A stretch of DNA of 64,000 bases from Elusimicrobiota bacterium (lineage in GTDB: Bacteria; Elusimicrobiota; Elusimicrobia; 2-01-FULL-59-12), in NCBI GenBank assembly GCA_041660185.1, contig JBAZWU010000011.1, forward strand, positions 28,883-92,882, read 5' to 3'. The notes under the pieces are model-generated. The model did not search any database. It was not told where the DNA came from and worked only from the letters and a program-made list of their open reading frames with translations. The translations under genes were made by a program, and so were the position numbers. Positions 12,450-62,697 of this stretch are shown here, in pieces. Positions within the stretch are counted from its first letter, which is position 1. Each line of letters opens with the position of its first letter.

Positions 12450-12816
12450 GGGGCTGAATAGGTTCGACAGGATTGGACGGAGCGGACAGTCGCAGGCCCT
12501 GGTTGGTCGAATCCAGGTAAAAAGTCGGCCAAAACACAACTGGCGAATACGCCCTCGCTGCCTAAACAACAGCGTGCCCTCGGCTTTTAAGCTGAGGCGC
12601 TCTCTCCGGCCCCGCCTGTGGGCGGAGTCAGAGCGTCATCATGCAGGCTAGGATCGGTTCTCTCGCCCTGAAGAGCTGATCCGAAATCCAGCAGGGCTAG
12701 TTCTTACGAAGGCCGTTCTCAGCCTGAGTAAGGTCGAAACCTAAAAGGGGACTAAGCTTGTAGGGACCCCGCTAGGCTAATCTTGGACCCGGGTGCAATT
12801 CCCGGCAGCTCCACCA
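12450..12816 (+). ncRNA. ssrA: tmRNA (SsrA), about 367 nt, predicted tag peptide GQNTTGEYALAA
   Basis: The 5' end 'GGGGCUGAAUAGGUUCGACAGG' pairs with the 3' end '...GGACCCGGGUGCAAUUCCCGGCAGCUCCACCA' (a tRNA-Ala-like acceptor/T-arm with a G3:U pair). The internal ORF 'GUC GGC CAA AAC ACA ACU GGC GAA UAC GCC CUC GCU GCC UAA' (12527-12565) ends in the YALAA* degradation tag. Confidence 0.9.
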
Positions 12817-20545: not shown

Positions 20546-20565
20546 CCAAAAGAGAAGCCCGCTAC

Positions 20566-20639
20566 TGTGCCCAACTGGACTTGAACCAGTAACCTCAACC
20601 TTCGCAGGGTTGCGCTCTATCCAATTGAGCTATGGGCAC
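20566..20639 (-). tRNA. tRNA-Arg (anticodon GCG as read; A20 identity element present; 3' CCA not encoded)
   Basis: The minus-strand sequence is GTGCCCATAGCTCAATTGGATAGAGCGCAACCCTGCGAAGGTTGAGGTTACTGGTTCAAGTCCAGTTGGGCACA. It folds with a 7-bp acceptor stem, a GCTC/GAGC D-stem, a CAACC/GGTTG anticodon stem with loop CUGCGAA, and a 5-bp T-stem. Confidence 0.8.
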
Positions 20640-20702
20640 AGAAGCGGGCCGTGTAACGCGAAGTCCTATTGTATCACAACATCGGAATTTGGACTTTGGA
20701 AG

Positions 20703-36937: not shown

Positions 36938-38592
36938 GACTGAATTTTAGACGAACCTTCTGGCTTCTGGCTGTTCCCCTTGGATTTTTCCAAGCCTGGG
37001 CCCTCCGGTTTAACATGGACCCCGACGGGATTTCTTATCTCGAAGTGGCTCAAGCCTATGCGCAAGGCCGATGGAACGACGCCTTCAACGCCTACTGGAG
37101 CCCGCTCTTTTCATGGATCCTGGCGGTCTTCCTGAAAGTGGTACATCCTTCCTCTTACTGGGAATTTCCGCTGATTCACCTGATCATTTTTTTCATTTAC
37201 CTGTTTGTGCTGGCAAGCTTTGACGACCTGCTCCGGCAGTTCCTGGCCTGGCACAAGACCCCCGCCGCCGATGCGGATCCCGGCTGGCACACGCTTCCGG
37301 AAGCGCTCTGGGAATGGATCGGGTACGCTCTGATTCTCTGGTGCACACTCTGGGCCCTGGGCCTGGCGCAAGCCACACCCAACCTGCTGGTGAGCGGATT
37401 TATTTTTCTGTCGGTCGGAATCGCTTTCCGTCTGCAGCGGGAAAATGTCTCCGGATGGCTTTATGTTTTATCGGGAGTCGTCCTTGGATTCGCTTATTTT
37501 GCCAAAGCCTATGCGTTCCTTTTCGGAGTGGCCTGGATCCTGGGGATGACGGGCGCGGCCTTTCTTCAGCGGCGGCCTATTCGACGTTATGCGCTGACCT
37601 TGGCTGTTTTTATTATCGTAACCGGCCCTTATATAGGCCTGTTGTCCCGGACGAAAAAACACTGGACCTTTGGCGACGCTTCATCCATCAATTACGCGGT
37701 CCATGTCAATCAAGCCCTTCCCTTGCCTTTCTGGACCGGGGATTTCCCGCCTGGCAGCGTGGCCAAACGCCTGGTTCGACAAATCATGAACCATCCGACG
37801 ATTTATGAATTTGATCGAGACATTCCTGCCAGTTTTCCCCTCTGGTATGACCCGGCTTACTGGATGGACGGCTTACGGCCCCGTTTTTCTGTCCGGGATC
37901 ACCTGAGCGCCTGGCGCGGGCATCTGAATGAATACACCCGGCTTCTTTTTTATGAACAGATCAGTCTCTGGACCGGAACGTTGATTCTCTTCGGGATGGC
38001 CCGGCGCTGGAAGCGGCTGATCAAACACGGGTGGCCGCTGCTGGTGCCGGCGCTGATCGGCTTTGGCATCTTCGCTCCGGTGCTGATGGCCAACAGCTAC
38101 ATCGCGCCGTTTATTGTTCTCGGCTGGCTGGGGATTCTGGCTGGGTTGGAATTTCCAACCGATGGGGTCACTTCGCGATGGTTGAGGCGCGTCGCGGGCG
38201 TTATGATCGCTGTCCCGCTTCTGCAAGTCGGTTACCGAATCGTCTCAGTTGTGCCGACGCGTTCAACCCCGTTCCACTGGCAGGTGGCGCAGAAGCTGCA
38301 CGAGTTAGGCCTGCGTCCGGGGGACCGGGTGGCGAGCTTTGACACCGGCTTTGGACAGTTCTGGGCGCATATCGGCGGATTTCGCCTGATCGCTGAAATT
38401 ACCGTTCCTGAGGAAGTGACCCTTATTACTCCGTCGAAGATGACGGAAATCGTTGGGGTCTTACGGGCGAAGGGCATTCGCGCATTCGTGGGACGGCAGG
38501 AACTGATTCCAGAAGACAGCCTCGGCGGCTGGCAACAACTTCACAACACACCTTACGCCGTTTACCTGATCAACCCAACTGAGGGGACGTAG
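36934..38592 (+). CDS. GT-C fold membrane glycosyltransferase (ArnT/PMT-like), paralogue 2 (ATGA overlap with paralogue 1)
   Basis: 'MRLNFRRTFWLLAVPLGFFQAWALRFNMDPDGISYLEVAQAYAQGRWNDAFNAYWSPLFSW' parallels paralogue 1. Its ATG at 36934 overlaps the TGA of the upstream gene. Confidence 0.6.
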   Translation: MRLNFRRTFWLLAVPLGFFQAWALRFNMDPDGISYLEVAQAYAQGRWNDAFNAYWSPLFSWILAVFLKVVHPSSYWEFPLIHLIIFFIYLFVLASFDDLLRQFLAWHKTPAADADPGWHTLPEALWEWIGYALILWCTLWALGLAQATPNLLVSGFIFLSVGIAFRLQRENVSGWLYVLSGVVLGFAYFAKAYAFLFGVAWILGMTGAAFLQRRPIRRYALTLAVFIIVTGPYIGLLSRTKKHWTFGDASSINYAVHVNQALPLPFWTGDFPPGSVAKRLVRQIMNHPTIYEFDRDIPASFPLWYDPAYWMDGLRPRFSVRDHLSAWRGHLNEYTRLLFYEQISLWTGTLILFGMARRWKRLIKHGWPLLVPALIGFGIFAPVLMANSYIAPFIVLGWLGILAGLEFPTDGVTSRWLRRVAGVMIAVPLLQVGYRIVSVVPTRSTPFHWQVAQKLHELGLRPGDRVASFDTGFGQFWAHIGGFRLIAEITVPEEVTLITPSKMTEIVGVLRAKGIRAFVGRQELIPEDSLGGWQQLHNTPYAVYLINPTEGT

Positions 38593-38658
38593 TTGCAACT
38601 TTGCATCGACTACGCCTCTCGTTGGCAAAGACAGCTGCAAAGTTGCAACTACGTCCCC
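38583..38658. repeat. REP pair (BIME-like): 23-bp 'GGGGACGTAGTTGCAACTTTGCA' and its inverted copy separated by 30 bp
   Basis: Forward copy 38583-38605, inverted copy 38636-38658. They sit between convergent gene ends. Confidence 0.85.
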
Positions 38659-52209: not shown

Positions 52210-53367
52210 TTGATGTCTTTGGCTATGAAATCCCCTCACAAACCGGCGTTCGAGCTTCAACTCCTATGCAAACTCCTGGCTTTGCGGCCAAGCCAGGAGG
52301 AATGTCTTTCAGACCTCCGCGCACCAGGTTTTTGCTGGGATCTATTCCTTCAGTTGGCGGAGTACCACGGGGTGATCGGATTTCTCTACGAGGCCCTGAC
52401 CGAAACCGGCCTGGCCCGGGAAGTTCCACCCAAGCTCCTGGAAGCGCTGCGGCATTCCACTCTGGTTCTCCTGGAAGAGCACCTGCAGCACAGGAGCGCG
52501 ATCCGGAAAACGCTGGAAACCCTGAACGCGGCCGGGTTGGAATTTATCGTTATTAAAGGGTGGTCACACGCCGAATCACTTCATGGGAACCCCTGCGCCC
52601 GTCCCATCACGGACCTGGACCTTCTCGTACACGACACGAAGGCGGCTCAAGCCCTGCTGAAACAACAGAGACTGCCGGACCCATCGATCGTAGACTGGCA
52701 TATCTATCCCACAAACACGTCGGATCTGCCGTCCCGCATGCGGTGCCTGCAGCTCGACATCCAGACGCTCTGGGCGGATTCGCGCCTCGCCACGATCACA
52801 GACACGCCGGCGCGCGTTCTTTCTCCGGCTGACCAGGTCATCGCCCTGGTGATCGACTTCACGATTTCGCATGGGTTCGGGAGGCTACTCCTTTTAAAGG
52901 AGATCCTGCTTCTGGCTGAAAAAGTCGGATGGGATGCGCTGGTGAAGAGGGCTCAACTATTCCAGGCTGACATTTTGCTGTACTTGACCCTCCGCATGGG
53001 AGAGGAACTTCTGCGATTCCCGGTTCCCCTCGATATTTTAAAAATCTTAGGGACTCGCTTAAGGCAAGAAGAACACTGGCTGGAAAAACGGCTGATTCAA
53101 AATCCGCTTTTTACCCCGGCCCGGTATTTCTGTATTCCGATTCTCCTGCCTTCCTGGGCCGATCGCCTGAGTTTTGCCAAAGAACTGCTCTGGCCTCCCC
53201 CCTATTGGTTCGAGCTCCGCAGCGAAAAACCGTCTCTCTGGCGCCACCTCATCCATGACGCGACGCTTATCGGCAAGGCATGCGCCATTTTATGGAACGT
53301 CAGGGGACGTAGTTGCAACTTTGCAAAAGGTGCCGGAAAAAATCCTTTTTTCCCCAAGACCGGGTAA
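52210..53367 (+). CDS. uncharacterised nucleotidyltransferase family protein (PF14907/NTP_transf_5-like), RiPP-cluster accessory type
   Basis: 'LNAAGLEFIVIKGWSHAESLHGNPCARPITDLDLLVHDTKAAQALLKQQ' matches the IKG...R..DIDLLV...D signature of this family. Confidence 0.65.
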   Translation: MMSLAMKSPHKPAFELQLLCKLLALRPSQEECLSDLRAPGFCWDLFLQLAEYHGVIGFLYEALTETGLAREVPPKLLEALRHSTLVLLEEHLQHRSAIRKTLETLNAAGLEFIVIKGWSHAESLHGNPCARPITDLDLLVHDTKAAQALLKQQRLPDPSIVDWHIYPTNTSDLPSRMRCLQLDIQTLWADSRLATITDTPARVLSPADQVIALVIDFTISHGFGRLLLLKEILLLAEKVGWDALVKRAQLFQADILLYLTLRMGEELLRFPVPLDILKILGTRLRQEEHWLEKRLIQNPLFTPARYFCIPILLPSWADRLSFAKELLWPPPYWFELRSEKPSLWRHLIHDATLIGKACAILWNVRGRSCNFAKGAGKNPFFPKTG

Positions 53368-53423
53368 AACAAGAAATATAGGCCATTTCCTGTCTCGTTG
53401 TGCAAAGTTGCAACTACGTCCCC
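53303..53423. repeat. REP pair: forward 23-bp REP (53303-53325) and inverted copy (53401-53423) with 75-bp spacer
   Basis: Exact matches to GGGGACGTAGTTGCAACTTTGCA and its reverse complement. They sit between the nucleotidyltransferase and ABC ATPase genes. Confidence 0.85.
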
Positions 53424-53446
53424 TGACGTTTTATATACTCAAACGT

Positions 53447-54190
53447 GTGACTTGTTCCATCGACGTACGGGGTGTTTCGAAATCGTTTTTCCCGCGGCTC
53501 TCTTTATTAAAACCCTGGCAGCCGAGGCCCCCCGTCCGCGCGCTCAATCACGTGAACCTCCGGGTGGAAACAGGAACGGTTTTCGCCCTGCTGGGCCCGA
53601 ATGGTTCCGGCAAAACGACCCTCCTCAAAATCATCAGCACGCTTCTGATGCCGGATGCCGGGACGCTTCGCGTGCTGGGTCACGTCCTGCCGGGGCAGGA
53701 GGAACGCGTCAAAACGCGAATCAGTTTCGCCATGGGAGACGAGCGAAGTTTCTACTGGCGCCTGACCGCCCGGCAGAACTTGATGTTTTTTGCTGCGCTC
53801 TATGATCTTTCCCCCCGGCAATCCGAACAAAAGATCGCTGAACTGGGTGACGTGTTCAGCCTGAAAGACTACCTTGACCGCCCCTACGAAGAACTCTCAT
53901 CCGGGATCCGGCAGCGCCTGGCGATCGCGCGATCCTTTCTGAACGACGCGGCCCTCCTGCTGGCCGATGAACCCACCCGCAGCCTCGATGCGGCCGCCAG
54001 AAACGCGCTTCACGGACTTCTTCAAAAACTCGTGCGGGAACACGGAAAAACGATTCTCTTCACAACGCATAATTTTGAGGAAGCCCGACGGGTGGCGGAC
54101 ACGGTAGGGATTTTGAATCAGGGCCGGCTTTGTTACTCCGGAAAATGGAAAGACGGCCTGGAGAGTTACCTCAATGCCCCCGCTTCGTAA
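53447..54190 (+). CDS. ABC transporter ATP-binding protein
   Basis: 'LLGPNGSGKTTLLKII' is Walker A, 'LSSGIRQRLAIARSF' the signature, 'LLLADEPTRSLD' Walker B. A GTG start at 53447 is chosen downstream of the REP; the listed ORF starts earlier inside repeat DNA. Confidence 0.85.
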   Translation: MTCSIDVRGVSKSFFPRLSLLKPWQPRPPVRALNHVNLRVETGTVFALLGPNGSGKTTLLKIISTLLMPDAGTLRVLGHVLPGQEERVKTRISFAMGDERSFYWRLTARQNLMFFAALYDLSPRQSEQKIAELGDVFSLKDYLDRPYEELSSGIRQRLAIARSFLNDAALLLADEPTRSLDAAARNALHGLLQKLVREHGKTILFTTHNFEEARRVADTVGILNQGRLCYSGKWKDGLESYLNAPAS

Positions 54191-54989
54191 ACTCTGGGCT
54201 TTTTCCCTCCGGGACTGGCAGCTCGCCCAGACGTATCGCTTTACTTTTTTGTTTGAGGTGGTCCGCACGCTGATCTTGCTGCTCTCGTTTTATTTCATCG
54301 GCAAATTGGTCCGGAGCAGCGGTGTTCACCCATCCCTGGCTGTATACGGAGGCGATTACTTTCGCTTCGTCCTTTTGGGCATCGTGTTCAGCGGCTTCAT
54401 GTCCACCGCTCTGGGCAGCGTGCGGCAGACGATTGAATTTGAACGGGGGCATGGGACATTGGAAGCCATTTTACTGACCCCCACTCCCCTGATCACGCTC
54501 GTGATCAACAAAACCCTGTGGGATCTCGGCATGGTCACAGCCAAGGCCGTCCTGTATCTCCTGGCAGGAGTTTACTTTTTTCGAGTGGATCTCTCGCACG
54601 TTTATTGGACCAGCACGCTGGTGGCCATCGCTTTGACAGTCAGCACCTTTTTTGGTTTAGGGCTGATCTCCGCCGGTATTCATTTACTCATCCGGGAAGA
54701 CAGCCCTTTGGACCTGATTTTGGAAGGAGCCTCGCGCTTCCTGGGAGGCGTTTATTTCCCGGTGGCGGTTCTTCCCGCGCCTCTTCTCGCGCTGTCCCGC
54801 TGGGTGCCGCTCACCTATGCGCTCGACGCGATCCGAAAATCCATGATTCTTGGAGCTTCGCTTCAAACCATCCGGATGGAACTACTGGTGCTGGCAGGGT
54901 GTTCGATCGTTCTGGTTCCGATCGGCGTGATCTGTTTTCAGAGCGCTTTCAAGACCGCCCGACGCAGGGGAATTCTCAGCTTCGAGTAG
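54174..54989 (+). CDS. ABC-2 type transporter permease
   Basis: 271 aa, 6 TM. Overlaps the ATPase stop. The ABC-2 family topology is typical. Confidence 0.75.
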   Translation: MPPLRKLWAFSLRDWQLAQTYRFTFLFEVVRTLILLLSFYFIGKLVRSSGVHPSLAVYGGDYFRFVLLGIVFSGFMSTALGSVRQTIEFERGHGTLEAILLTPTPLITLVINKTLWDLGMVTAKAVLYLLAGVYFFRVDLSHVYWTSTLVAIALTVSTFFGLGLISAGIHLLIREDSPLDLILEGASRFLGGVYFPVAVLPAPLLALSRWVPLTYALDAIRKSMILGASLQTIRMELLVLAGCSIVLVPIGVICFQSAFKTARRRGILSFE

Positions 54990-55745
54990 GGTTTTACAAA
55001 GAAAGGCCATCGGCGCTGAAGGTTCCCCAGCCTGCTGGAAACCCAGGGACCGGTAAAGTCGGAGGGCAGCTTGATTATCCGATTCCACCGTTAAACAAAG
55101 TTCTCTGACCCCTTGTTGGCGTGCCGTCCGTATCAGCTCCCCTAACAACAAAGTCGCGATTCCGCCGCCGCGGACCCAAGCGCGGACAAGCAGGTCTTTG
55201 ATGTTTTCCTTTTGATTCGGCTTGACGACGAGAAAAACATAACCGGCTTTCCAAGAACCGATAAAGGCCTGAAAAACAAAGGCGCCCTCTTCTTCCATCC
55301 GATTAATCCGGACCCGCGAAGCCAAATAAACCCTGAACAACACACGGTATAAATGGAAAGACTGGACCCAGGACAAAACCCGGATTCCCGCCATTTTCAC
55401 TTGTCGCTTCATCCAGGAAGGCCCGTATCGAATGAACAGAAAAAGGAAATACCGTCTCCGAAGATCTTTTTCAAGGAAAATTCGGCTTCCCCGTTTGACC
55501 ATTTCCAAGCGACCGATCAATTGATCTTCGCGGATCCATTCGATCGCTAGCGGAAGCTCATCTCCTGCTACTCCGAAATAATTTGGCCCAGCCGACAATC
55601 GCCTGATGCACCTCAACCGGTGAGCCACCGGGTTATCGTGTTCCGTCTGGCGATAAAGCAGGATGTCTCCAATTTTGAGGGTGGTTGATGATGAGAAGGC
55701 CCGGACAAAAAGCTCATCGCCCGGGCGAAGGAAGGGCTGCATACT
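54882..55745 (-). CDS. fusion: S24/S26-type (signal-peptidase/LexA-like) serine peptidase domain + GNAT N-acetyltransferase domain
   Basis: The N-region 'GGSMQPFLRPGDELFVRA...IGDILLYRQ' matches the GDSMxPTL..GD box of Ser-Lys dyad peptidases. The C-region 'VRGGGIATLLLGELIRTARQQGVRELCLTVESDNQAALRLYRSLGF' is the GNAT acetyl-CoA binding motif. The start is placed at the internal Met; the ORF's first residues are REP-encoded. Confidence 0.55.
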   Translation of the reverse strand, partial: SMQPFLRPGDELFVRAFSSSTTLKIGDILLYRQTEHDNPVAHRLRCIRRLSAGPNYFGVAGDELPLAIEWIREDQLIGRLEMVKRGSRIFLEKDLRRRYFLFLFIRYGPSWMKRQVKMAGIRVLSWVQSFHLYRVLFRVYLASRVRINRMEEEGAFVFQAFIGSWKAGYVFLVVKPNQKENIKDLLVRAWVRGGGIATLLLGELIRTARQQGVRELCLTVESDNQAALRLYRSLGFQQAGEPSAPMAFLCKTLLEAENSPASGGLESALKTDHADRNQNDRTPCQHQ

Positions 55746-55785
55746 GCCACCCTCGGCCCGGCAGAAAAACGAGCCGGGAGCACTA

Positions 55786-55863
55786 GGGGACGTAGTTGCA
55801 ACTTTGCATAAGGTATTCATATGACACAAGATACCTTTGATGCAAAGTTGCAACTACGTCCCC
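55786..55863. repeat. REP pair: forward REP (55786-55808) and inverted copy (55841-55863) around a palindromic 32-bp spacer
   Basis: Exact 23-bp matches. The spacer 'taaggtattcatatgacacaagatacctttga' is itself an inverted repeat. Confidence 0.85.
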
Positions 55864-55887
55864 TGGCGGTCTTTCGCGACATCTCCG

Positions 55888-56091
55888 TCAGGACGTGGTG
55901 GCGCCGGAATCCCGGGCGGTTGTCACGCTTGCCCGCCGGCAACCGTTGGAGGTCCGACATCCCTTTGTTCCTCTGACAGACAAGCTGGTGCCGCTTCGTG
56001 TGCATGTGCTGAGAATGGCCTGCTCCCGGCGGAGCACAACTTGGGTGATTTGCGGGGACTGATACGGCTTTTTTTCAGTTACAGTCGTCAT
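55888..56091 (-). CDS. candidate RiPP precursor peptide (67 aa: leader MTTVTEKKPYQSPQITQVVLRREQAIL; Cys/Ser/Thr/Arg-rich core)
   Basis: The ATG starts immediately after the TAA of the upstream radical SAM gene. A strong SD 'AGAGGGAGAG' lies 5-14 nt upstream. My translation gives MTTVTEKKPYQSPQITQ... as listed. The core has 3 Cys and 18 Ser/Thr. Confidence 0.5.
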   Translation of the reverse strand: MTTVTEKKPYQSPQITQVVLRREQAILSTCTRSGTSLSVRGTKGCRTSNGCRRASVTTARDSGATTS

Positions 56092-57141
56092 TTAGCTCTC
56101 CCTCTGTGCGATAAACATCGCTTTTTTCTCCGCGACTTCCCGAAAATAGGGCATGCAAGGGGCATCAAATGCTTTTTGGTCCAACCAACCATCCATGCTT
56201 CCCCGATCGCAATGAAACGCGATCGGACAGGATGAGCACGCGTAGGCAGGGCCCGGCTTCTGCGCCGCGACAAACTTCACCAACGTTTGCCAGCCTTTTT
56301 CAACCGACCCCGCCGTCACATCATACGACGGATGATGGATGCAGACACAAAGATTCATCCGGCCATGAGGCGTCAAAGCGGCGTTGCTCTTGCCACAAAG
56401 ACAATCGAACAGTTTCCCGGCGGAACCGCATTTCCCCTCCAAGGATCCGCCGGCCTCTTGCATTGGCTTTCCGCTATTTTCACGCCATATCTCGAAAACC
56501 CTGGCAGGCGACAACCGGTACATCAAGGGTTCTTTTGAACCGTCCACTCTGGGATAGATGTCCGTGCCGATCCGATAGGGCAGTTGACGGGACCGGGCGA
56601 AGTCTTTCATGGGCTCCAGTTCGTGTTCATTCAGCGTCATCAAAACGAGTTTCAGCAGGATGGGGATATGCCTTTCTTTCAGCCAATCAACCCCCTCGAC
56701 AAAATGAGCGTAGGAACCGGGGATGCGCGTCACAGATTCATAACTGTCAGCCGTGGCGCCATAAACGGAAATTTCCACCAGATAAGGATCCAACTCCGCC
56801 ATCTGATCCGCCAGCGCCGGCGTGATCAGAGTGGCGTTCGTAGTGATCGTAATCACCATCCCAAGTGAGCGGGCATACCGCATAATCTCACAGGCATCCC
56901 GCCGGGTGAACACCTCTCCTCCGGTGAAACCGATCCACAGGCATCCCTGAGCCGCCATCTCATCTAACAGTCGGTAAACCTGTTCCGTGGTCAGTTCCTG
57001 TTTCGCTTCGTGGGTTGTGTTATAACAGTGCACGCAGCGCAGGTTGCAGCCGTACGTCAGCTCCACCGTGGCCTGAATCCACTGCGGACGGGCCTTGGCG
57101 TCCTCACTCAGCTGATCGATGAATTGATCAAACTCTTTCAT
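56092..57141 (-). CDS. radical SAM/SPASM domain peptide-modifying enzyme (rSAM-1)
   Basis: 'TYGCNLRCVHCY' is CxxxCxxC. The C-terminal Cys-rich SPASM region is 'CGSAGKLFDCLCGKS...CVCIHH...CSSCPIAFHCDRG'. The start is placed at 'MKEFDQ' (14-nt overlap with the kinase gene). Confidence 0.85.
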   Translation of the reverse strand: MKEFDQFIDQLSEDAKARPQWIQATVELTYGCNLRCVHCYNTTHEAKQELTTEQVYRLLDEMAAQGCLWIGFTGGEVFTRRDACEIMRYARSLGMVITITTNATLITPALADQMAELDPYLVEISVYGATADSYESVTRIPGSYAHFVEGVDWLKERHIPILLKLVLMTLNEHELEPMKDFARSRQLPYRIGTDIYPRVDGSKEPLMYRLSPARVFEIWRENSGKPMQEAGGSLEGKCGSAGKLFDCLCGKSNAALTPHGRMNLCVCIHHPSYDVTAGSVEKGWQTLVKFVAAQKPGPAYACSSCPIAFHCDRGSMDGWLDQKAFDAPCMPYFREVAEKKAMFIAQRES

Positions 57142-58012
57142 AAAGATAACGGACGATACGGTTGTCTTGAGTAAAGCGCAGTTCGCCGCTGGGAACATCC
57201 TTGACCAGGCGGGTCGCTGCCTCCACGAGCCGTGCCATGGCTTCCTGATTCCAAAGAGGCAAATACGCTTCCGTGAAAATCGATTTCAATACGGGCTGAG
57301 GCGGCCGCGGGAGAAACTGATTGTCCGTCGCCTGGACCAGAACTGAAAAACGCTTGAGAAGCGCTGCCCCCTTGGAAACCTGCCGAAGCTCGCCGTGCCA
57401 GGGCGTTCCCGCTACGTGCCAGTGTTTTCCCTCCCGCCAGAGAAGAATACGCTCGTCATTCAGCACCTGAGCGGAAGAATGTGTCCGGAAGAGCCTGGAA
57501 ATCGTGGTCTTGCCGGCGCCGGAGTGACCGATGAATGCCAGCCCCTTGCCCGACAGAGAAACCGCTGCCCCATGCAAAATCATCCCTTTCCTCCGAAGCG
57601 CCAGCCAGCCGGTCAGCCACCATTGGATCAAAGGCTCGGCCACATCTCCCAGGTACCACCCCTTCTGGCGAAGCCCGGGTGACCGGTACGTGAGCGGAAT
57701 CAGATGGAGATCGATTTGATCCCACTTCGGGGTGATGAAACACACCTGCCTGGGCAGAAAATGCATTTGTTCCAGAATTTCCAATCGCACTCTGCCCCTC
57801 TCCTGGTAGACGCGCCATTGATTGGGAAGCTCATAAAGGAAGCGGGGCTTCCCATGCGGCTTGGGCGCATCGGTCCGGACCTGGATGGTCACGGTCGGCG
57901 GGAGAGAATTTCTGTCTTCAAAGACACCGCAAAATTCATGCGGCCAATCATGCGGCGGGGTATCCGCGATAAATCGAATGACGGCAGGGCCGATTTTGAT
58001 AGTGAGCTTCAT
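57128..58012 (-). CDS. HPr kinase/phosphorylase C-terminal-domain-like protein (HprK-related kinase)
   Basis: 'GMILHGAAVSLSGKGLAFIGHSGAGKTT' is a P-loop in the HprK-C context. It overlaps the rSAM-2 stop (ATGA) and the rSAM-1 start. Confidence 0.7.
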   Translation of the reverse strand: MKLTIKIGPAVIRFIADTPPHDWPHEFCGVFEDRNSLPPTVTIQVRTDAPKPHGKPRFLYELPNQWRVYQERGRVRLEILEQMHFLPRQVCFITPKWDQIDLHLIPLTYRSPGLRQKGWYLGDVAEPLIQWWLTGWLALRRKGMILHGAAVSLSGKGLAFIGHSGAGKTTISRLFRTHSSAQVLNDERILLWREGKHWHVAGTPWHGELRQVSKGAALLKRFSVLVQATDNQFLPRPPQPVLKSIFTEAYLPLWNQEAMARLVEAATRLVKDVPSGELRFTQDNRIVRYLYERV

Positions 58013-59274
58013 GACGATGCCCCCTCACCCCTACCCTCCCCCTCAACAGGGGGAGGGAGCGTAAGATTTTTCGCGGATGTATCCCCTCTCCCTGCTGAGG
58101 GAGAGGGGCTGGGGGTGAAGGTCAAGATGCTGGCAGTTTGCCGAGCTTTCGCTACTTCACAGAAATAAGGGACCGGCGCTTCCATGGACCCTGCCTCATG
58201 GATCGCCATCACGGGATTTTTGTCGCAGAACAGATGGGAGGAACAACTCCGGCACGCCGACTCCCCGGTGTAGCGGGCCTGATTGATTTCCTCGGCTGAG
58301 CGCTGGAACGCCTCGGAAACAGGGATCGTTTTCAGATCATACGACGGCCAGGTGGTGAACGTGCAGGGGCGAAACACACCGTACGGACTGACCGTCAATT
58401 GATTGGTCCCGCATCCGCAGCGAAAGAGCCGGTCATCCGGGGGGGGACCCTCACCCCAACCCTCCCCCTCAACAGGGGGAGGGAGTATGAAATCTGCGGG
58501 GGATCCCCCCTCTCCCTGTTGAGGGAGAGGGCAAGCAGGACGACCGCTAGGTCGGACAGGCGCGGGTGAGGGTTTACACTCCTCTGCCACCTCCAGTTCA
58601 GCCACCTCGGCTCCAGATAACCGGTACTGCGTGGAGGAAAGGTCCCCGTTCAAACGCGGGTAAATCGTGGGATAGAGACTGAAATCCACCCCCAATCCTT
58701 CCACGTACGCTCTGATCTCGCCCAATTCCTGACGATTAACGGTCATGGCCTTGGTTTTGATCGCCACCGACAAACGCCGGTCCAGTAACCGGCGGATCCC
58801 TGCCTGAAAACACGCGTAGGAACCCGGCACCTGGGTCACCCGCTCAAAGGTCTCGGCACGAACGCCATGCAAACTCACCTCCAACTGAAAGGGAGGGTCC
58901 TTGGCGAGAAAATCCGCGATCTCGTCCGTGATCGTTGTCCCGTTGGTGAATAACGCGATCAGGAATCCTCTCTCCTTGGCCGCACGATATATATCCTTGA
59001 ATCGCGGATGAAGTACCGCTTCTCCTCCGGTGAGGGTAAGCCAGAGCACGCCGGCGGAGGCCAGGTCGTCAAGAATCCGGATCATTCCCGGCAGCGGCAA
59101 TTCCCGCGACAACGCCGTCGGGGTGTTAAAGGGGTCTGTAAAACAATGGACGCAATGGAGATTACATCGGTAAGTCAGTTCCAACTGTGCCTTGAGAGGA
59201 CTCCGATTTTCGACGCTCCGGGAAAAGACCCGGGCGCTGAACACACTGTACATTTCTTCTTGAAACTTGCTCAT
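58009..59274 (-). CDS. radical SAM/SPASM domain enzyme (rSAM-2) carrying in-frame repeat-encoded P/G/E-rich linker and C-terminal tail
   Basis: 'TYRCNLHCVHCF' is the rSAM motif. SPASM 'CGCGTN...CTFTT...CRSCSSHLFCDK'. The segment 'PLPQQGEGGSPADFILPPPVEGEGWGEGPPP' between the rSAM and SPASM domains and the tail 'LPPPVEGEGRGEGASS' are encoded by the palindromic repeats at 58447-58572 and 58021-58120. Confidence 0.8.
   Translation of the reverse strand: MSKFQEEMYSVFSARVFSRSVENRSPLKAQLELTYRCNLHCVHCFTDPFNTPTALSRELPLPGMIRILDDLASAGVLWLTLTGGEAVLHPRFKDIYRAAKERGFLIALFTNGTTITDEIADFLAKDPPFQLEVSLHGVRAETFERVTQVPGSYACFQAGIRRLLDRRLSVAIKTKAMTVNRQELGEIRAYVEGLGVDFSLYPTIYPRLNGDLSSTQYRLSGAEVAELEVAEECKPSPAPVRPSGRPACPLPQQGEGGSPADFILPPPVEGEGWGEGPPPDDRLFRCGCGTNQLTVSPYGVFRPCTFTTWPSYDLKTIPVSEAFQRSAEEINQARYTGESACRSCSSHLFCDKNPVMAIHEAGSMEAPVPYFCEVAKARQTASILTFTPSPSPSAGRGDTSAKNLTLPPPVEGEGRGEGASS
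58021..58120. repeat. P/G/E-coding palindromic 'GEG' repeat, copy C (overlapping rSAM-2 3' end / HprK-like start)
   Basis: 'cccctcacccctaccctccccctcaacagggggagggag...cccctctccctgctgagggagaggggctgggggtgaagg'. Confidence 0.8.
58447..58572. repeat. P/G/E-coding palindromic 'GEG' repeat, copy D (long variant), inserted in-frame inside rSAM-2
   Basis: 'ccctcaccccaaccctccccctcaacagggggagggag...cccccctctccctgttgagggagagggcaagcaggacgaccgctaggtcggacaggcgcgggtgaggg'. It shares its tail with copy A (26757-26886). Confidence 0.8.
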
Positions 59275-59306
59275 TTCCTAAACCCTCTAACGAACACATC
59301 TACGGA

Positions 59307-59396
59307 ACCCTCATCCGGCCTGCGGCCACCTTCCCTCTCAACAGGGGGAAGGACATTCTCCCTCTCCCTGTTGAGGGAGAGGGGACGGGGGTGAGG
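59307..59396. repeat. P/G/E-coding palindromic 'GEG' repeat, copy E (intergenic between rSAM-3 and rSAM-2)
   Basis: 'ccttccctctcaacagggggaagga...ccctctccctgttgagggagaggggacgggggtgaggg'. Confidence 0.8.
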
Positions 59397-59397
59397 G

Positions 59398-61575
59398 TTA
59401 AATGGTTTGGACAGCACCGATCGCCCGAAGTTCCGACAAATACGTCGCGACGTCCTGTTCGGCAACAGCGGAATCCACTGTAAATGCTTTTCCCAGCAAC
59501 GCTGTCAGTTCCCGGCCCGTACGCCGGCCGTCAATCTGTTCCCACAGGAAAGCGCCGACCTCATTCAACGTATAAAGAGATGGCTCCTGATTCGGCTGCC
59601 GGTTCGCGGGAACCAGAACCATCTCCCCCGCCACCCGGCGGGCCACCATCGTCGGGCACTTTTGAAACCGAAAATCCAGCTGTTCTGTTGAAGCCGCCAT
59701 GATCGTTCCTCCGCTTTTTTTCAGGTTCTGTATGATGCTGTTCCAGTTCTGTCGGGCGGCCGGCCACTCCGGGTCCAACTCCATCAAGCGCTCGTATTCC
59801 CGCAGGGCCGGTTCCCACTGTTTGAGAAATTCTTCCTTGTAAGCGGGCGTAGCATACAACGTTCGATAAGAGGGGTCCAGGGAAATCATCCGCTCCCAGG
59901 CTTCCCGGGCCGACGGGACATCGTTCCGCCCGAGGGCTTCGCAGACTTGCTCATAAACGCGCGCCGCCGAGCCGGCAGGCGGTTGATCCTCGACGAGAGC
60001 AGCGGGATCCAGCAGCGCGCGCTGAATGAGATCGCCGAAATATTTGTACCGCAGCGGCGTGTATCCTTTATTGACCGAGTACGAAAGGGTCACAAAGTCC
60101 GTCGGCAGCTCAACGGCCCGGAGACGCCGGAGAAAGTGACTCGGCTGCAGCCAGGGACCGGCGTAGTCGCTGTCAAAATACGGAAACAATCCAGTCCCGT
60201 CGATGTGGCGAGTCAGGAGATAATCCACATCGATGTCCAGGAGAACCGGTTTTATAAAGCGGGGCAGCGACTCCAGCCGGCACACCGTCAACGGGCATCC
60301 CATCAATAGGAGATGAATCCCTGTCTCGGAAACCCGTAAAGGGCCTGCCGAATCCGGTCTCGCATGAATCATTTCGTTAATCCATTGAATGAGTTTCTGC
60401 CGTTGGTCAGGGGTTTCCCAAAAACCATCAGGGATGACCCAATAAAGCTCGCGGATGAAGCCTTCCCGGATGGCTGGATAAAGGAAATTACCACTGTCCA
60501 TCGCTTTATGCGGAGGATGGTCATCGATCCAGAAAAAATCCAGATGACCGTCCAGATGAATCAGGGTTCGGCCCTGGACTCCAGCGTCTTTCCAGAGGGT
60601 GTAGGCCGTCTCATGATCTTCCATCAGATGGATCGACTTCGAAGGAATCGGATCAGCCGCCGCCAGGGATTTCTTTCGGGGGCAGGGAAAGCTCGGCAGC
60701 GCTTTGTAAAACCCTTCCAGAAAGGAGCCTCGTCTCAAGTCGTAGCTGGCCCGCCGGTTGTTGGAACACAGCTGAAGCTGCCCGTACGCATCGATGTGGA
60801 ATTTGTAGCGTCCCCCCTGACAGGGGAAGTCATCGGGGTATGTGGCGTGGCCGTCACGCTCCCGCTCCGCCCAGAGCTGAGGGTCCTGACGCTCGATGGC
60901 CGCCAGGTCTTTGTCGGACAACTGGAATCGCAGAGGGGCTCCACTGCCGGTCAGATCATCGAGCAGGTGTTCTCCAAACTGAAAAGACACGCCGGGACCG
61001 AAGTCGTCCACATAACGTTTGATCGCCAAAATCTCGTCCCGGTTCAGCGTCGTCCCCACTGTTTTCAACGTCACCGGGATCTGCCGTTCCATCAAAAGCC
61101 GAACCGCCTCCACATTCAGGGGACGTAGTTGCAACTTTGCACAAACAGCATCAGAGATCGCATGAAGGCTGATTTCCACCCGCACGGGAGGCATCCTGGC
61201 CCATTGATCGGCGATCTCGCGCGTGATGAGCGTTCCATTGGAGAAAACCGTAATGAGAAATCCAAAACGGTGAGCGGTTTCATAAATCTCCATGAAATCA
61301 GGCCGGCACAGCGGCTCCCCGCCGGTGAACGTGACTTCCAGGCAACCCGCGGCCTGGATCTCATGGAGAATGCGAAGGATGTCAGCGGTAGGAAGCTCCT
61401 GACGGATCCGCTCCGGCGTATTGAAACAATCCGTATAGCACATGGCACACGTCAGATTGCACCGGCAGGTGAGTTCCCACTGGCCGACCAAAGGAGCGCG
61501 ACCCTGGAGAGAACGGGCCAAGACTTGATCGCCGAAAACCTGCGATGAGCGGGTCGGGAAAGCGGGGATGGCCAT
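59398..61575 (-). CDS. multidomain protein: radical SAM (twitch/SPASM-like) domain + ~300-aa uncharacterised domain + TPR-like segment + C-terminal PqqD-like (RRE) domain (rSAM-3)
   Basis: 'LTCRCNLTCAMCY' is the rSAM cluster motif. The middle has a 'HLDGHLDFFWIDD' metal-site-like motif. The C-terminus 'LYTLNEVGAFLWEQIDGRRTGRELTALLGKAFTVDSAVAEQDVATYLSELRAIGAV' matches the PqqD fold pattern. The start is placed at 'MAIPAF'; the listed ORF starts within a REP. Confidence 0.75.
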   Translation of the reverse strand: MAIPAFPTRSSQVFGDQVLARSLQGRAPLVGQWELTCRCNLTCAMCYTDCFNTPERIRQELPTADILRILHEIQAAGCLEVTFTGGEPLCRPDFMEIYETAHRFGFLITVFSNGTLITREIADQWARMPPVRVEISLHAISDAVCAKLQLRPLNVEAVRLLMERQIPVTLKTVGTTLNRDEILAIKRYVDDFGPGVSFQFGEHLLDDLTGSGAPLRFQLSDKDLAAIERQDPQLWAERERDGHATYPDDFPCQGGRYKFHIDAYGQLQLCSNNRRASYDLRRGSFLEGFYKALPSFPCPRKKSLAAADPIPSKSIHLMEDHETAYTLWKDAGVQGRTLIHLDGHLDFFWIDDHPPHKAMDSGNFLYPAIREGFIRELYWVIPDGFWETPDQRQKLIQWINEMIHARPDSAGPLRVSETGIHLLLMGCPLTVCRLESLPRFIKPVLLDIDVDYLLTRHIDGTGLFPYFDSDYAGPWLQPSHFLRRLRAVELPTDFVTLSYSVNKGYTPLRYKYFGDLIQRALLDPAALVEDQPPAGSAARVYEQVCEALGRNDVPSAREAWERMISLDPSYRTLYATPAYKEEFLKQWEPALREYERLMELDPEWPAARQNWNSIIQNLKKSGGTIMAASTEQLDFRFQKCPTMVARRVAGEMVLVPANRQPNQEPSLYTLNEVGAFLWEQIDGRRTGRELTALLGKAFTVDSAVAEQDVATYLSELRAIGAVQTI
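61119..61141. repeat. single REP copy lying in-frame inside the rSAM-3 coding sequence (encodes ...AKLQLRPL...)
   Basis: Exact 23-bp 'ggggacgtagttgcaactttgca'. Protein length around it appears normal for the rSAM fold. Confidence 0.8.
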
Positions 61576-61592
61576 GCCGTTATCGTAGGACG

Positions 61593-62621
61593 TCAGGGGA
61601 CGTAGTTGCAACTTTGCATATTGAGTCTTTCCTTAAGCTCAAACCGATGGGCCAGGCGCTGACCTCGTTCAAATGCCCTGCTGGCGGTGCTCGTTGATAG
61701 AACGAGTTGCTTCCCCATCCCGGTGACAGATTGCTTAAACCAGACTACTCCGGCATATACCGCCATGGCCTTCGCATCTGACAGCGCGCGCCGCTGACCC
61801 GTTTCGGAAAAGTAATGGGGGTCTTCTCCGGTCAGATCGGCAATAAGATCCAATACCTTTTCAAAATTGATTGATTTTGGAATGGGCGTTTCATCACAAC
61901 CGTCTTTCGCCTTGCGCAGGGTTTCTTCCACAAAAGCACTGTCCCCCAGCAAACGTAGGTCGTACGCGTAGGCTTCACCGCTTCTGATGGCCTGCAGAGC
62001 AGGACCTCCCCCTCCCCAACTACGAATAAGTCCGCCTCCTTCTAACTGGTCCTGTCGTTTCTGACTCCAAGCCTCCATTACAAATAATTCGTAGTTTGCC
62101 CGCGCCTGGCGCAAAGTCGGGCCAAAACGTTCAAGAACTTTCCCGGCAACCTGCCAGGGCCTGTCTAAGGTACCCATCAGAGCCGAGTGGCTTGTCCAAG
62201 GATAGACAGCCAGTTCAGAAGGCGATCGGACAATTCCCGCGCGCACTGGGTTAAGAGCGATATAACGTATCAGCTCCAGAAAATAGGGATCCTCCTGACA
62301 GATGATGTCCTTGTATCGGTTTTGAAACAAATGACCGGCGCGCTGATAGCGCAGGTTAAATGAGACGGCATACCCAGTCAAAAGCTTTTGCATGACCCGA
62401 GAAATGCGCGTGGAAGCCGTCTGGAGCAACAGGTGCAGGTGATTAGGCATGAGCGCCCAGGCGTAACAGAGGGTTTTCGTTTCTTGGAGGATGCGACCTA
62501 ACCGGTCGGCGAATTCGGAGTAATCTCGATTTGATCTAAAAATAGAGCGTTTTTCAATTCCCCTCGCGATTACGTGATGAAAGAGTCCAGGGAAGTCGAT
62601 ACGAGGTAAACGTGGCATCAC
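61593..62621 (-). mobile_element. REP-associated tyrosine transposase (RAYT; IS200/IS605-family Y1 HUH transposase) with ~190-aa C-terminal extension, flanked by inverted REPs (61596-61618 and 62665-62687)
   Basis: 'MPRLPRIDFPGLFHHVIARGIEKRSIFRSNRDYSEFADRL...YAWALMPNHLHLLLQT' contains the HuH motif (HLH) and the Y1 architecture. The REP at its 3' end encodes the C-terminal '...MQSCNYVP'. An inverted REP with 1 mismatch lies 44 bp upstream of the start. Confidence 0.75.
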
Positions 62622-62697
62622 TTACTTAGATAAAGTTTTTGGCGATATATTCGAGGGGGTGCTATGAAAAGTTGCAACTACGTCCCCTGACGTTGGT

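Follow-up and report, generated by a model that had tools for sequence, protein, structure and literature searches.

A probable TIRtron in an Elusimicrobiota bacterium: a Y1 transposase with a DnaA-like C-terminal domain, its terminal inverted repeats and their dispersed copies

We have analysed a stretch of 64,000 nucleotides (nt) of DNA from an Elusimicrobiota bacterium (GenBank assembly GCA_041660185.1, contig JBAZWU010000011.1, positions 28,883 to 92,882), referred to here as the window, and in particular a Y1 transposase gene that is bracketed by inverted copies of a short repeat. This element is very probably a TIRtron, i.e. a gene for a transposase of the TIRYT type that is flanked by terminal inverted repeats and not by repetitive extragenic palindromic (REP) sequences. 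For the locus as a whole, we consider the best explanation to be a TIRtron (equivalent to TnpA_REP subclass 2.1 and RAYT Group 1) in an Elusimicrobiota host, the repeat of which has also been laid down in trans, and we think it likely that this is correct. The class itself has already been described, and the locus presented here is one of the minority of cases in which the repeat has spread.

Results

The initial annotation of the window listed nine copies of a 23-nt sequence, GGGGACGTAGTTGCAACTTTGCA, and all nine were recovered exactly where it had placed them. When up to three mismatches are allowed there are nine matches in the window, at 38583+/38636-, 53303+/53401-, 55786+/55841-, 61119+, 61596+ and 62665-, against an expectation of 0.00 from 100 shuffles. 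Eight of these are exact, and the copy at 62665- carries one mismatch. Six of them form three inverted doublets, two bracket the transposase gene and the ninth is a solo copy (Table 1), which amounts to a local density of nine copies per 64 kb against a single copy of the gene. No degenerate relatives of the 23-mer were found in the window; a search with a 14-mer core and up to two mismatches returned the identical nine sites. Alignment of the flanks shows that the unit is longer in four of the nine copies, namely both of the gene-bracketing copies and both arms of the 53.3-kb pair, where it extends to 30-31 nt and reads ACGTCAGGGGACGTAGTTGCAACTTT(G/T)CATA. The two 31-nt arms that bracket the gene match at 30 of 31 positions. 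The earlier description, of a gene flanked by a repeat in inverted orientation and of inverted pairs of this repeat in the vicinity, is thus borne out.

Table 1. Coordinates of the element and of the dispersed repeat copies in the window
Feature	Position	Strand	Description
TIRYT-type Y1/HUH transposase gene	61593..62618	-	341 aa + stop
DnaA-domain-IV-like helix-turn-helix, C-terminal	61644..61865	-	approximately residues 252-325; profile and fold matches
Upstream (gene-proximal 5') terminal inverted repeat	62663..62693	-	31 nt; core 62665-62687, 1 mismatch (TTTTCA)
Downstream terminal inverted repeat	61590..61620	+	31 nt; core 61596-61618
Solo copy	61119..61141	+	same orientation as the downstream repeat, 477 bp from it
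Inverted doublet 1	38583..38658	.	23-nt arms, 30-nt spacer; between convergent genes
Inverted doublet 2	53296..53430	.	30-nt arms, 75-nt spacer; between NTP_transf_5 and ABC-ATPase genes
Inverted doublet 3	55786..55863	.	23-nt arms, 32-nt spacer; between radical SAM gene (with 67-aa ORF) and GNAT gene

The bracketed open reading frame (ORF; 61593..62621, minus strand) is real, although its length needs a small correction. It was annotated with 342 amino acids (aa), whereas the likeliest start is the ATG at 62618, which gives 341 aa and the N-terminus MPRLPR. We prefer this start because it matches both the family consensus and a 100%-identical database protein (P0001) that comes from an Elusimicrobiota metagenome-assembled genome. 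The last seven codons (QSCNYVP) lie inside the 23-mer and the TGA stop abuts the outer end of the repeat; hence the C-terminus of the protein is indeed encoded by the repeat, as had been proposed. About 15 bp separate the end of the downstream repeat from the start codon (ATG, 61575) of the gene that follows, which encodes a radical SAM protein. On the other side, the upstream repeat has its inner end 41-44 bp 5' of the start codon and its outer end 4 bp past the stop of the preceding ORF. Inspection of the flanking sequence revealed no target-site duplications around the element or around any doublet or other copy, in line with what Y1 transposition would leave. In 10 of 12 copies the flank reads N-A|GGGG. 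There are matching flanks, ACGTCA and TGACGT, but these are inverted, not direct, and are therefore part of the repeat. A promoter and terminator scan of the 61-63 kb region found nothing above chance.

The element has a further, nested layer of repeats. A Logan contig (L003), identical to the end of the window and extending 1.6 kb further, contains one more copy of the upstream repeat variant, in direct orientation and with two mismatches, at 876-898 of the contig and approximately 0.75 kb past the right end of the window. This copy (GGGGACGTAGTTGCATCTTTTCA plus a shared inner TAG, with TTTTCATAG in common with the upstream repeat) is located 2,075 bp upstream of the element. Taken together with the solo copy at 61119 it results in the layout L' - 657-aa ORF - L - transposase - R - 477 bp - R', read 5' to 3' on the minus strand of the window.

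The 23-mer is a terminal inverted repeat; it is not a REP palindrome. Folded as single-stranded DNA it reaches just -2.1 kcal/mol (z -1.1), no better than shuffled sequences. The 31-mer with the 5' extension ACGTCA can form two mini-hairpins of 4-5 bp (-6.6 kcal/mol, z -3.6), yet the extension that these require is present in only four of the nine copies. Pairs of inverted copies fold very stably, into hairpins of 23-30 bp, with energies of -31 to -45 kcal/mol and z-scores of -10 to -13 over the five doublets that we have found (two of them outside the window, see below). The tetranucleotide GTAG does occur, at positions 7-10 of the window repeat and not at the end of the unit, but it is found at these positions in only 2 of 59 repeats from related loci. 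It is thus not a conserved tag, and we rejected it as the counterpart of the REP tag for this reason.

The protein encoded between the repeats is a Y1 transposase, in agreement with the initial annotation. The Pfam model Y1_Tnp matches residues 15-122 (E=1.2e-9), and the catalytic core of the Y1 type spans residues ~1-130. The HUH motif corresponds to H60-L-H62 (codons 62441-62433), and Y119, within RYIALNP (62264-62262), is the presumed catalytic tyrosine. N59, H60, H62 and Y119 are invariant across 60 aligned homologues, in which the tyrosine motif reads RY-I-x-L-N-P. An AlphaFold model based on this alignment has a mean predicted local distance difference test (pLDDT) of 88.3, and approximately 90 over the C-terminal domain. 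Its best Foldseek match in the PDB is 4er8_A, the E. coli TnpA_REP bound to a REP hairpin (E=5.7e-6), which is followed by the ISDra2, IS200 and IS608 transposases with E-values of 2e-4 to 4e-3. The best NCBIfam model is REP_Tyr_transpos (NF047646), however, the score of 62.8 bits is below the curated cut-off of 80.

The sequence comparison that separates the candidate classes was made with the published alignment of RAYTs and TIRYTs, from which we rebuilt the reference sequences (Di Nocera et al., Additional file 5, PMC3733652). In BLASTP searches the main TIRYT group (hch1378, gbm2474, dau2153, rba2408, sml4509/1152) matches the window protein at 33-36% identity over 145-187 positions, with E-values of 1e-24 to 1e-30. 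The Pseudomonas RAYTs reach 1e-11 to 1e-13, and the E. coli RAYT has 21% identity and E=2.6e-4. The protein is therefore RAYT-like, as the initial annotation had it, but the TIRYTs are clearly better matches than the classical RAYTs. This similarity, together with the non-palindromic terminal repeats, is what leads us to assign the element to the TIRtrons.

The long C-terminal half had been singled out earlier as an additional domain, and profile and fold searches with it point to a helix-turn-helix (HTH) that resembles domain IV of DnaA. A helical linker, in which the motifs GGGLIRS and RxLGDxxFV (RILGDxxFV) are conserved, spans residues ~140-250, and the helical region C-terminal to it is also conserved in the 60-homologue alignment. 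When the window protein by itself was searched against the PDB sequences with phmmer nothing was found at E<=1; matches were obtained with a profile of the family and by comparison of the fold instead. The family profile matches DnaA domain IV from Thermotoga maritima (2z4r, E=1.5e-5) and E. coli (1j1v, E=0.0024), as well as from Aquifex (1l8q/2hcb) and Mycobacterium tuberculosis (3pvp). Foldseek independently places the C-terminus of the model on 3pvp, the DNA-binding domain of M. tuberculosis DnaA (prob 1.0, TMt 0.60), and 39 of the 60 family members individually match Pfam Bac_DnaA_C (PF08299).

This extension is present as described initially, but it is not peculiar to the window copy. Among the matches listed in a database search there are >6,700 homologues (clusters at 90% identity), nearly all of ~335 aa, and many of them carry precomputed Y1_Tnp and Bac_DnaA_C domains. 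Searching residues 140-341 against 1.84 billion cluster representatives identified 779 clusters at 50% identity that carry the extension, with the full-length matches beginning at residue 140 of a ~335-aa protein. Judging by these sequences, the long C-terminal extension is the fixed architecture of a very large family.

In order to view the element in the context of this family, we compared metagenome contigs around homologues and 80 loci in species-representative genomes. Most of these 80 loci belong to Desulfobacterota, and some to NC10, Elusimicrobia and other groups. Inverted repeats flank the gene at 62 of the 78 loci where it is located away from the contig ends, and at 59 of these 62 the repeats start with GGGAC[GA]. 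Typically there are 25-50 bp between the end of the upstream repeat and the start codon, and the downstream repeat tends to end 15-60 bp past the stop. In the window and its closest relatives (L004, L005 and L089) the downstream repeat instead overlaps the end of the ORF and encodes ...NVP or ...NYVP. The consensus anchored on GGGACG consists of (G)GGGACG, three variable bases and two short direct sub-repeats 8 nt apart, e.g. TTGCAACT-TTGCA in the window and TTAACTTA-TTAACTT or TGACATAT-TGACAT elsewhere. The autocorrelation of the repeats at an 8-nt offset is 0.48 versus 0.31 in shuffles (z=12.6, a value that is inflated by kinship among the loci). The sequences of the sub-repeats differ between loci, as do the neighbouring genes. 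Relatives with 63-64% protein identity have related yet distinct repeats, GGGGACGTAGGTGTAAGATTGCG and GGGGACGTTCATGCAAGATTGCG, hence the repeat co-varies with the protein.

The window has seven copies of the repeat beyond the bracketing two. A few of the homologous loci have one to three extra copies, often a direct copy of one end nearby. Extra direct copies of this kind are seen at L011, L041, L052, L064, L065, L069 and L082.

A separate observation concerns the inner edge of the upstream repeat, which contains TTGAC in 18 of 59 loci (L007, L010, L014, L015, L033, L036, L047, L054, L072 and others). In 14 of these 18 it is found at a fixed distance of 35-36 nt before the start codon, and only 4 of 59 downstream repeats contain it. 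The upstream copy in the window lacks this motif. From its position, TTGAC looks like the -35 box of a leaderless or near-leaderless transposase mRNA. If this is the case, then an HTH bound to the repeat could autoregulate the transposase gene. In addition, some genomes may host several paralogues; on the chromosome of an NC10 bacterium (L008/L013, 20258-21008) a second gene of ~340 aa with a weak Bac_DnaA_C match is found ~10 kb downstream of a family member.

The dispersed copies are found at gene ends and, in one case, within a gene. All three window doublets are intergenic, and doublet arms abut or overlap stop codons. In doublet 1 a TAG within each arm is the stop codon of the adjoining convergent ORF, in doublet 2 the upstream NTP_transf_5 ORF reads through the left arm, and in doublet 3 the left arm starts 43 bp from the GNAT start codon, upstream of the gene. 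As single-stranded DNA the three fold with -33.2 kcal/mol (z -10.3), -45.4 kcal/mol (z -11.4) and -35.7 kcal/mol (z -13.3), respectively. The solo copy at 61119 is in frame within the Radical_SAM domain of a 725-aa radical SAM (rSAM)/TPR/PqqD protein (ORF 59398-61575, minus strand), where it encodes AKLQLRP and leaves the ORF uninterrupted. It falls at the H-D-x-L-R-G-x-x-G-x-F region of SkfB and PqqE. In alignments with these two the protein is 4 aa shorter at this position, therefore this copy replaces sequence and adds no net insertion.

Outside the window, a metagenome scan found the 23-mer as two further inverted doublets, on two short contigs of another metagenome; only these two contigs were found. 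Their G+C contents are 0.55 and 0.46 (0.57 for the window), and they have no similarity to the window outside the repeats. An exact scan for the 23-mer in the species-representative genome collection, which does not include the source genome, returned 0 matches. One of the metagenome contigs (L002) also carries a truncated repeat copy at 625-641 (GGGGACGTAGTTGCC in the minus-strand reading), which is separated from the intact doublet by ~30 bp.

The spacers of the doublets are informative with regard to how these could have arisen. The three window doublets and the two metagenome doublets have spacers of 30, 75, 32, 22 and 28 nt between arms that are identical over 23 nt. The longest words that the spacers have in common are 3-8 nt, and shuffled spacers share ~7-8 nt with the element interior; the five share nothing above chance, either mutually or with the interior. 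We therefore rejected two candidate origins, that the doublets are deletion derivatives of the element and that they are copies of one master REPIN. A third candidate, paired insertion around pre-existing host hairpins, is not supported by the folding of the spacers, which are not consistently self-structured (z-scores of +0.47, -0.55, -1.94, -6.7 for a 4-bp stem, and -0.17). The spacer of doublet 1 (38606-38635) does include CTTTGC-CAACGAGAG, which resembles the inner end and flank of the 53401 copy (CTTTGCA-CAACGAGACAGG) and may be the vestige of an older, truncated repeat copy.

Comparison with known systems

TIRtrons were described by Di Nocera, De Gregorio and Rocco (2013, BMC Genomics 14:522; PMC3733652) as RAYT-like genes that are flanked by terminal inverted repeats, not by REPs, and they named the encoded proteins TIRYTs. 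Many of these elements, but not all, have a common GGGGWSAS motif; the repeats sometimes overlap the end of the ORF, and in a limited number of genomes there are dispersed families of the terminal repeats, as singles, dimers or groups (PMC3733652). The window element resembles this description closely. It has a Y1 protein with HUH and tyrosine motifs that is longer than a RAYT, non-REP terminal inverted repeats that start GGGG(A)(C), a 3' repeat that overlaps the ORF end as in the "3'ov" cases, and a dispersed repeat family like those of the minority genomes. There are also differences. The published TIRYTs are ~215-240 aa in length and lack the extra ~90-aa DnaA-like HTH of the window protein, and Elusimicrobiota is a new host phylum for the class.

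The extension does have a precedent in the TnpA_REP classification of Quentin, Siguier, Chandler and Fichant (2018, PMC6006769). Their subclass 2.1 includes some of the longest Y1 proteins, and in subgroup 2.1.2 the C-terminus is similar to Bac_DnaA_C or to HTH_23/HTH_28. No REPs were found near subclass 2.1 genes, a correspondence with TIRYTs was suggested and 20 of 26 TIRYTs were placed in 2.1 (PMC6006769). Subclass 2.1 has since been equated with RAYT Group 1 of Bertels et al. 2017 (bioRxiv 10.1101/2020.03.09.984088), where the flanking 16-mers are only modestly repeated in most genomes (PMC5581495). The long Y1 protein, the DnaA-like C-terminal extension and the lack of REP palindromes nearby are all features that the window shares with subgroup 2.1.2, and we place it there provisionally, on the basis of its architecture and its similarity to TIRYTs. 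In contrast to the 2018 study, which found no repeats near subclass 2.1 genes, repeats are explicit here, at 59 of 78 loci and with a two-part layout. Moreover, they are locally abundant in the window, with nine copies in 64 kb.

The E. coli REPtron is a further relative for comparison (TnpA_REP, also known as YafM, structure 4er8; Ton-Hoang 2012; Messing 2012; Corneloup 2021, PMC8266576). It has the same catalytic fold, its gene is likewise flanked by inverted copies of the presumed substrate repeat, and repeat and enzyme co-evolve. The inverted repeat pairs with variable linkers also recall the bacterial interspersed mosaic elements (BIMEs) of E. coli. However, the E. coli enzyme has 165 aa and no HTH, and it recognizes a folded, single-stranded, imperfect palindrome preceded by GTAG. 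The window has a non-palindromic unit, GTAG is not conserved and the identity is 21%. The REPINs of Bertels and Rainey (2011, PMC3116915) are similar in having two inverted units, a short spacer, a long hairpin and a RAYT-family gene flanked by the repeat, but REPINs are copied as whole doublets with common spacers (PMC3116915), whereas our five doublets have five unrelated spacers of 22-75 nt. Lastly, members of the IS200/IS605 family (IS608, ISDra2) have the same Y1/HUH core and produce no target-site duplications. These have subterminal hairpins in place of terminal inverted repeats, transposases of ~130-155 aa without an HTH, and whole elements in multiple copies, unlike the 31-nt terminal inverted repeats and the 341-aa two-domain protein that are found here.

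Alternative explanations

The initial annotation considered the locus to be a classic REP-RAYT arrangement, or REPtron. Under this explanation an enzyme of the RAYT Group 2/3 type reads a folded single-stranded palindrome of 20-40 nt with a GTAG (or CGTC) tag at one end and disperses REPs or REPINs throughout the genome, in tens to hundreds of copies. Several results agree with it: the nearest structure is TnpA_REP on its hairpin, the nearest NCBIfam family is REP_Tyr_transpos, the unit contains a GTAG, its ACGTCA-extended form can make two mini-hairpins in the four copies that have it, and the inverted doublets are reminiscent of REPINs and BIMEs. Yet the 23-mer alone folds no better than shuffled sequences, the GTAG is neither terminal nor retained in the family, the NCBIfam score falls short of its cut-off, the doublet spacers are unrelated, unlike those of REPIN copies, and the protein has twice the length of a classical RAYT and is much closer to TIRYTs. 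Accordingly we consider a classic REPtron to be unlikely. The label captures the general logic of the locus, but it fails on the palindromic unit, the terminal GTAG tag and the curated RAYT model. A different view would be that this is an ordinary autonomous insertion sequence (IS), with the doublets as its miniature inverted-repeat transposable elements (MITEs), which would be internally deleted and moved as whole units. A transposase gene with terminal inverted repeats and short elements that are bounded alike is the usual picture of such a system. The varied gene neighbours of the homologous loci imply that a gene-plus-repeat unit has landed in many contexts, and among the true RAYT groups it is Group 1 that was reported to resemble an IS most closely, with 6.3% duplicates and 1.2% on plasmids (Bertels et al., PMC5581495). 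Against it, the five doublet spacers have nothing above chance in common with one another or with the element interior; the lack of target-site duplications, the single gene copy among nine repeats and a solo copy that is in frame in an uninterrupted gene are further points that make this account quite improbable.

It is also conceivable that the 23-mer is a functional site of the host, for example the binding site of another protein or, as a doublet, a hairpin that acts in termination or mRNA stability, and that it is next to a transposase by accident. Every doublet in the window is located between genes and adjoins gene ends, the hairpins would be very stable, and selection could explain why the copies are identical except for three (62665 with one mismatch, L003 876 with two and the truncated copy on L002). 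But the gene is flanked by its own repeat in 59 of 78 loci with differing interiors, and the repeat co-varies with the protein, therefore the link with the transposase is not incidental. In addition, there is no T-tract after the hairpins, the terminator scan found nothing at the element and one copy is inside a coding region. We think it very improbable that a host function accounts for the repeat, although such a role can coexist with a TIRtron as a secondary, co-opted one.

A number of results weigh against the TIRtron explanation or against parts of it. The window repeat, GGGGACGT, agrees with the GGGGWSAS motif at no more than 6 of 8 positions, and the subfamily sampled here has the consensus GGGGACG. 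The window protein alone falls below significance for Pfam Bac_DnaA_C, and it is the family profile, the 39 of 60 relatives and the predicted fold that reach DnaA. The kinship among loci noted above inflates the z-score of the 8-nt periodicity. At most homologous loci the +/-10 kb around the gene contain no further copy of the repeat; therefore, the enzyme does not generally spread its repeats. Our repeat counts refer to the 64-kb window and a few short contigs. Furthermore, no known copying mechanism accounts for doublets in which the arms are identical but the spacers unrelated: either a single repeat was deposited twice, in inverted orientation, or selection or gene conversion has preserved the identity of the arms as the spacers drifted. 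Finally, binding, cleavage and mobilization are all features that we infer for the class by analogy.

Proposed mechanism and significance

The mechanistic details of the TIRtron, which are drawn from studied Y1 enzymes, are much less certain than its identity. We propose that the HUH/Tyr119 core would cleave and rejoin one strand at the GGGGACG end via a 5'-phosphotyrosine, as IS608, ISDra2 and the E. coli TnpA_REP do. The DnaA-like HTH may confer specificity by binding the variable sub-repeats as a duplex, which could be either ordinary double-stranded DNA or the stem into which inverted copies would fold on the single-stranded DNA of a replication fork. The activity of the enzyme would then spread the repeat in trans, as doublets and as solo copies. 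Given that the doublet spacers are unrelated, the deposited unit is more likely to be a single repeat of ~25 nt than a whole doublet.

A bolder version of this scheme is a two-part code, in which the HUH core reads the invariant GGGGACG and the HTH reads the sub-repeats 8 bp apart. A solo repeat of ~25 nt would be laid down twice, in inverted orientation and 22-75 bp apart, around arbitrary host DNA, which would create de novo hairpins at the ends of genes and, now and then, in frame inside a gene, with a possible link to the adjacent gene cluster discussed below. We regard this combination as speculative and, on balance, doubtful. If true, it would be a way of generating repeats that is distinct from both REPIN copying and IS/MITE transposition.

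The DnaA-tailed TIRYT (subclass 2.1) enzymes are a very large bacterial family, and we found no experimental study of any member in the literature that we searched. This locus is a clean natural case in which the terminal repeats of an enzyme have also spread, hence the cognate substrate is unambiguous. The comparison across loci provides a testable model of this substrate, with an invariant GGGGACG end and variable sub-repeats 8 bp apart. The locus also illustrates that the repeats can provide genes with stop codons, encode the C-terminus of a protein and contribute a stretch of in-frame sequence to a radical SAM enzyme. We record the TIRtron class in the Elusimicrobiota; this refines a described class and overturns nothing that is known.

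Genomic context

The element adjoins a gene cluster (window 52210-61575) that is similar to those for ribosomally synthesized and post-translationally modified peptides (RiPPs). This RiPP-like cluster encodes an NTP_transf_5 protein, an ABC ATPase and permease, a GNAT protein and three radical SAM proteins, one of them a fusion with TPR and PqqD, and it includes a 294-aa ORF without annotation. The cluster and its edge account for six of the nine copies of the repeat. In picocyanobacteria, subclass 2.1 TnpA_REP genes co-localize with lanthipeptide precursor genes and a link has been proposed (bioRxiv 10.1101/2020.03.09.984088). A possible precursor peptide is encoded by a 67-aa ORF at 55888-56091 on the minus strand, MTTVTEKKPYQSPQITQVVLRREQAILSTC..., which follows directly on the stop codon of a radical SAM gene (56092-57198) and has its end 25 bp away from doublet 3.

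Elsewhere in the window there is a tmRNA gene (12450-12816, with the tag peptide GEYALAA) and a tRNA-Arg(GCG) gene (20565-20640), which are both ordinary and unrelated to the element.

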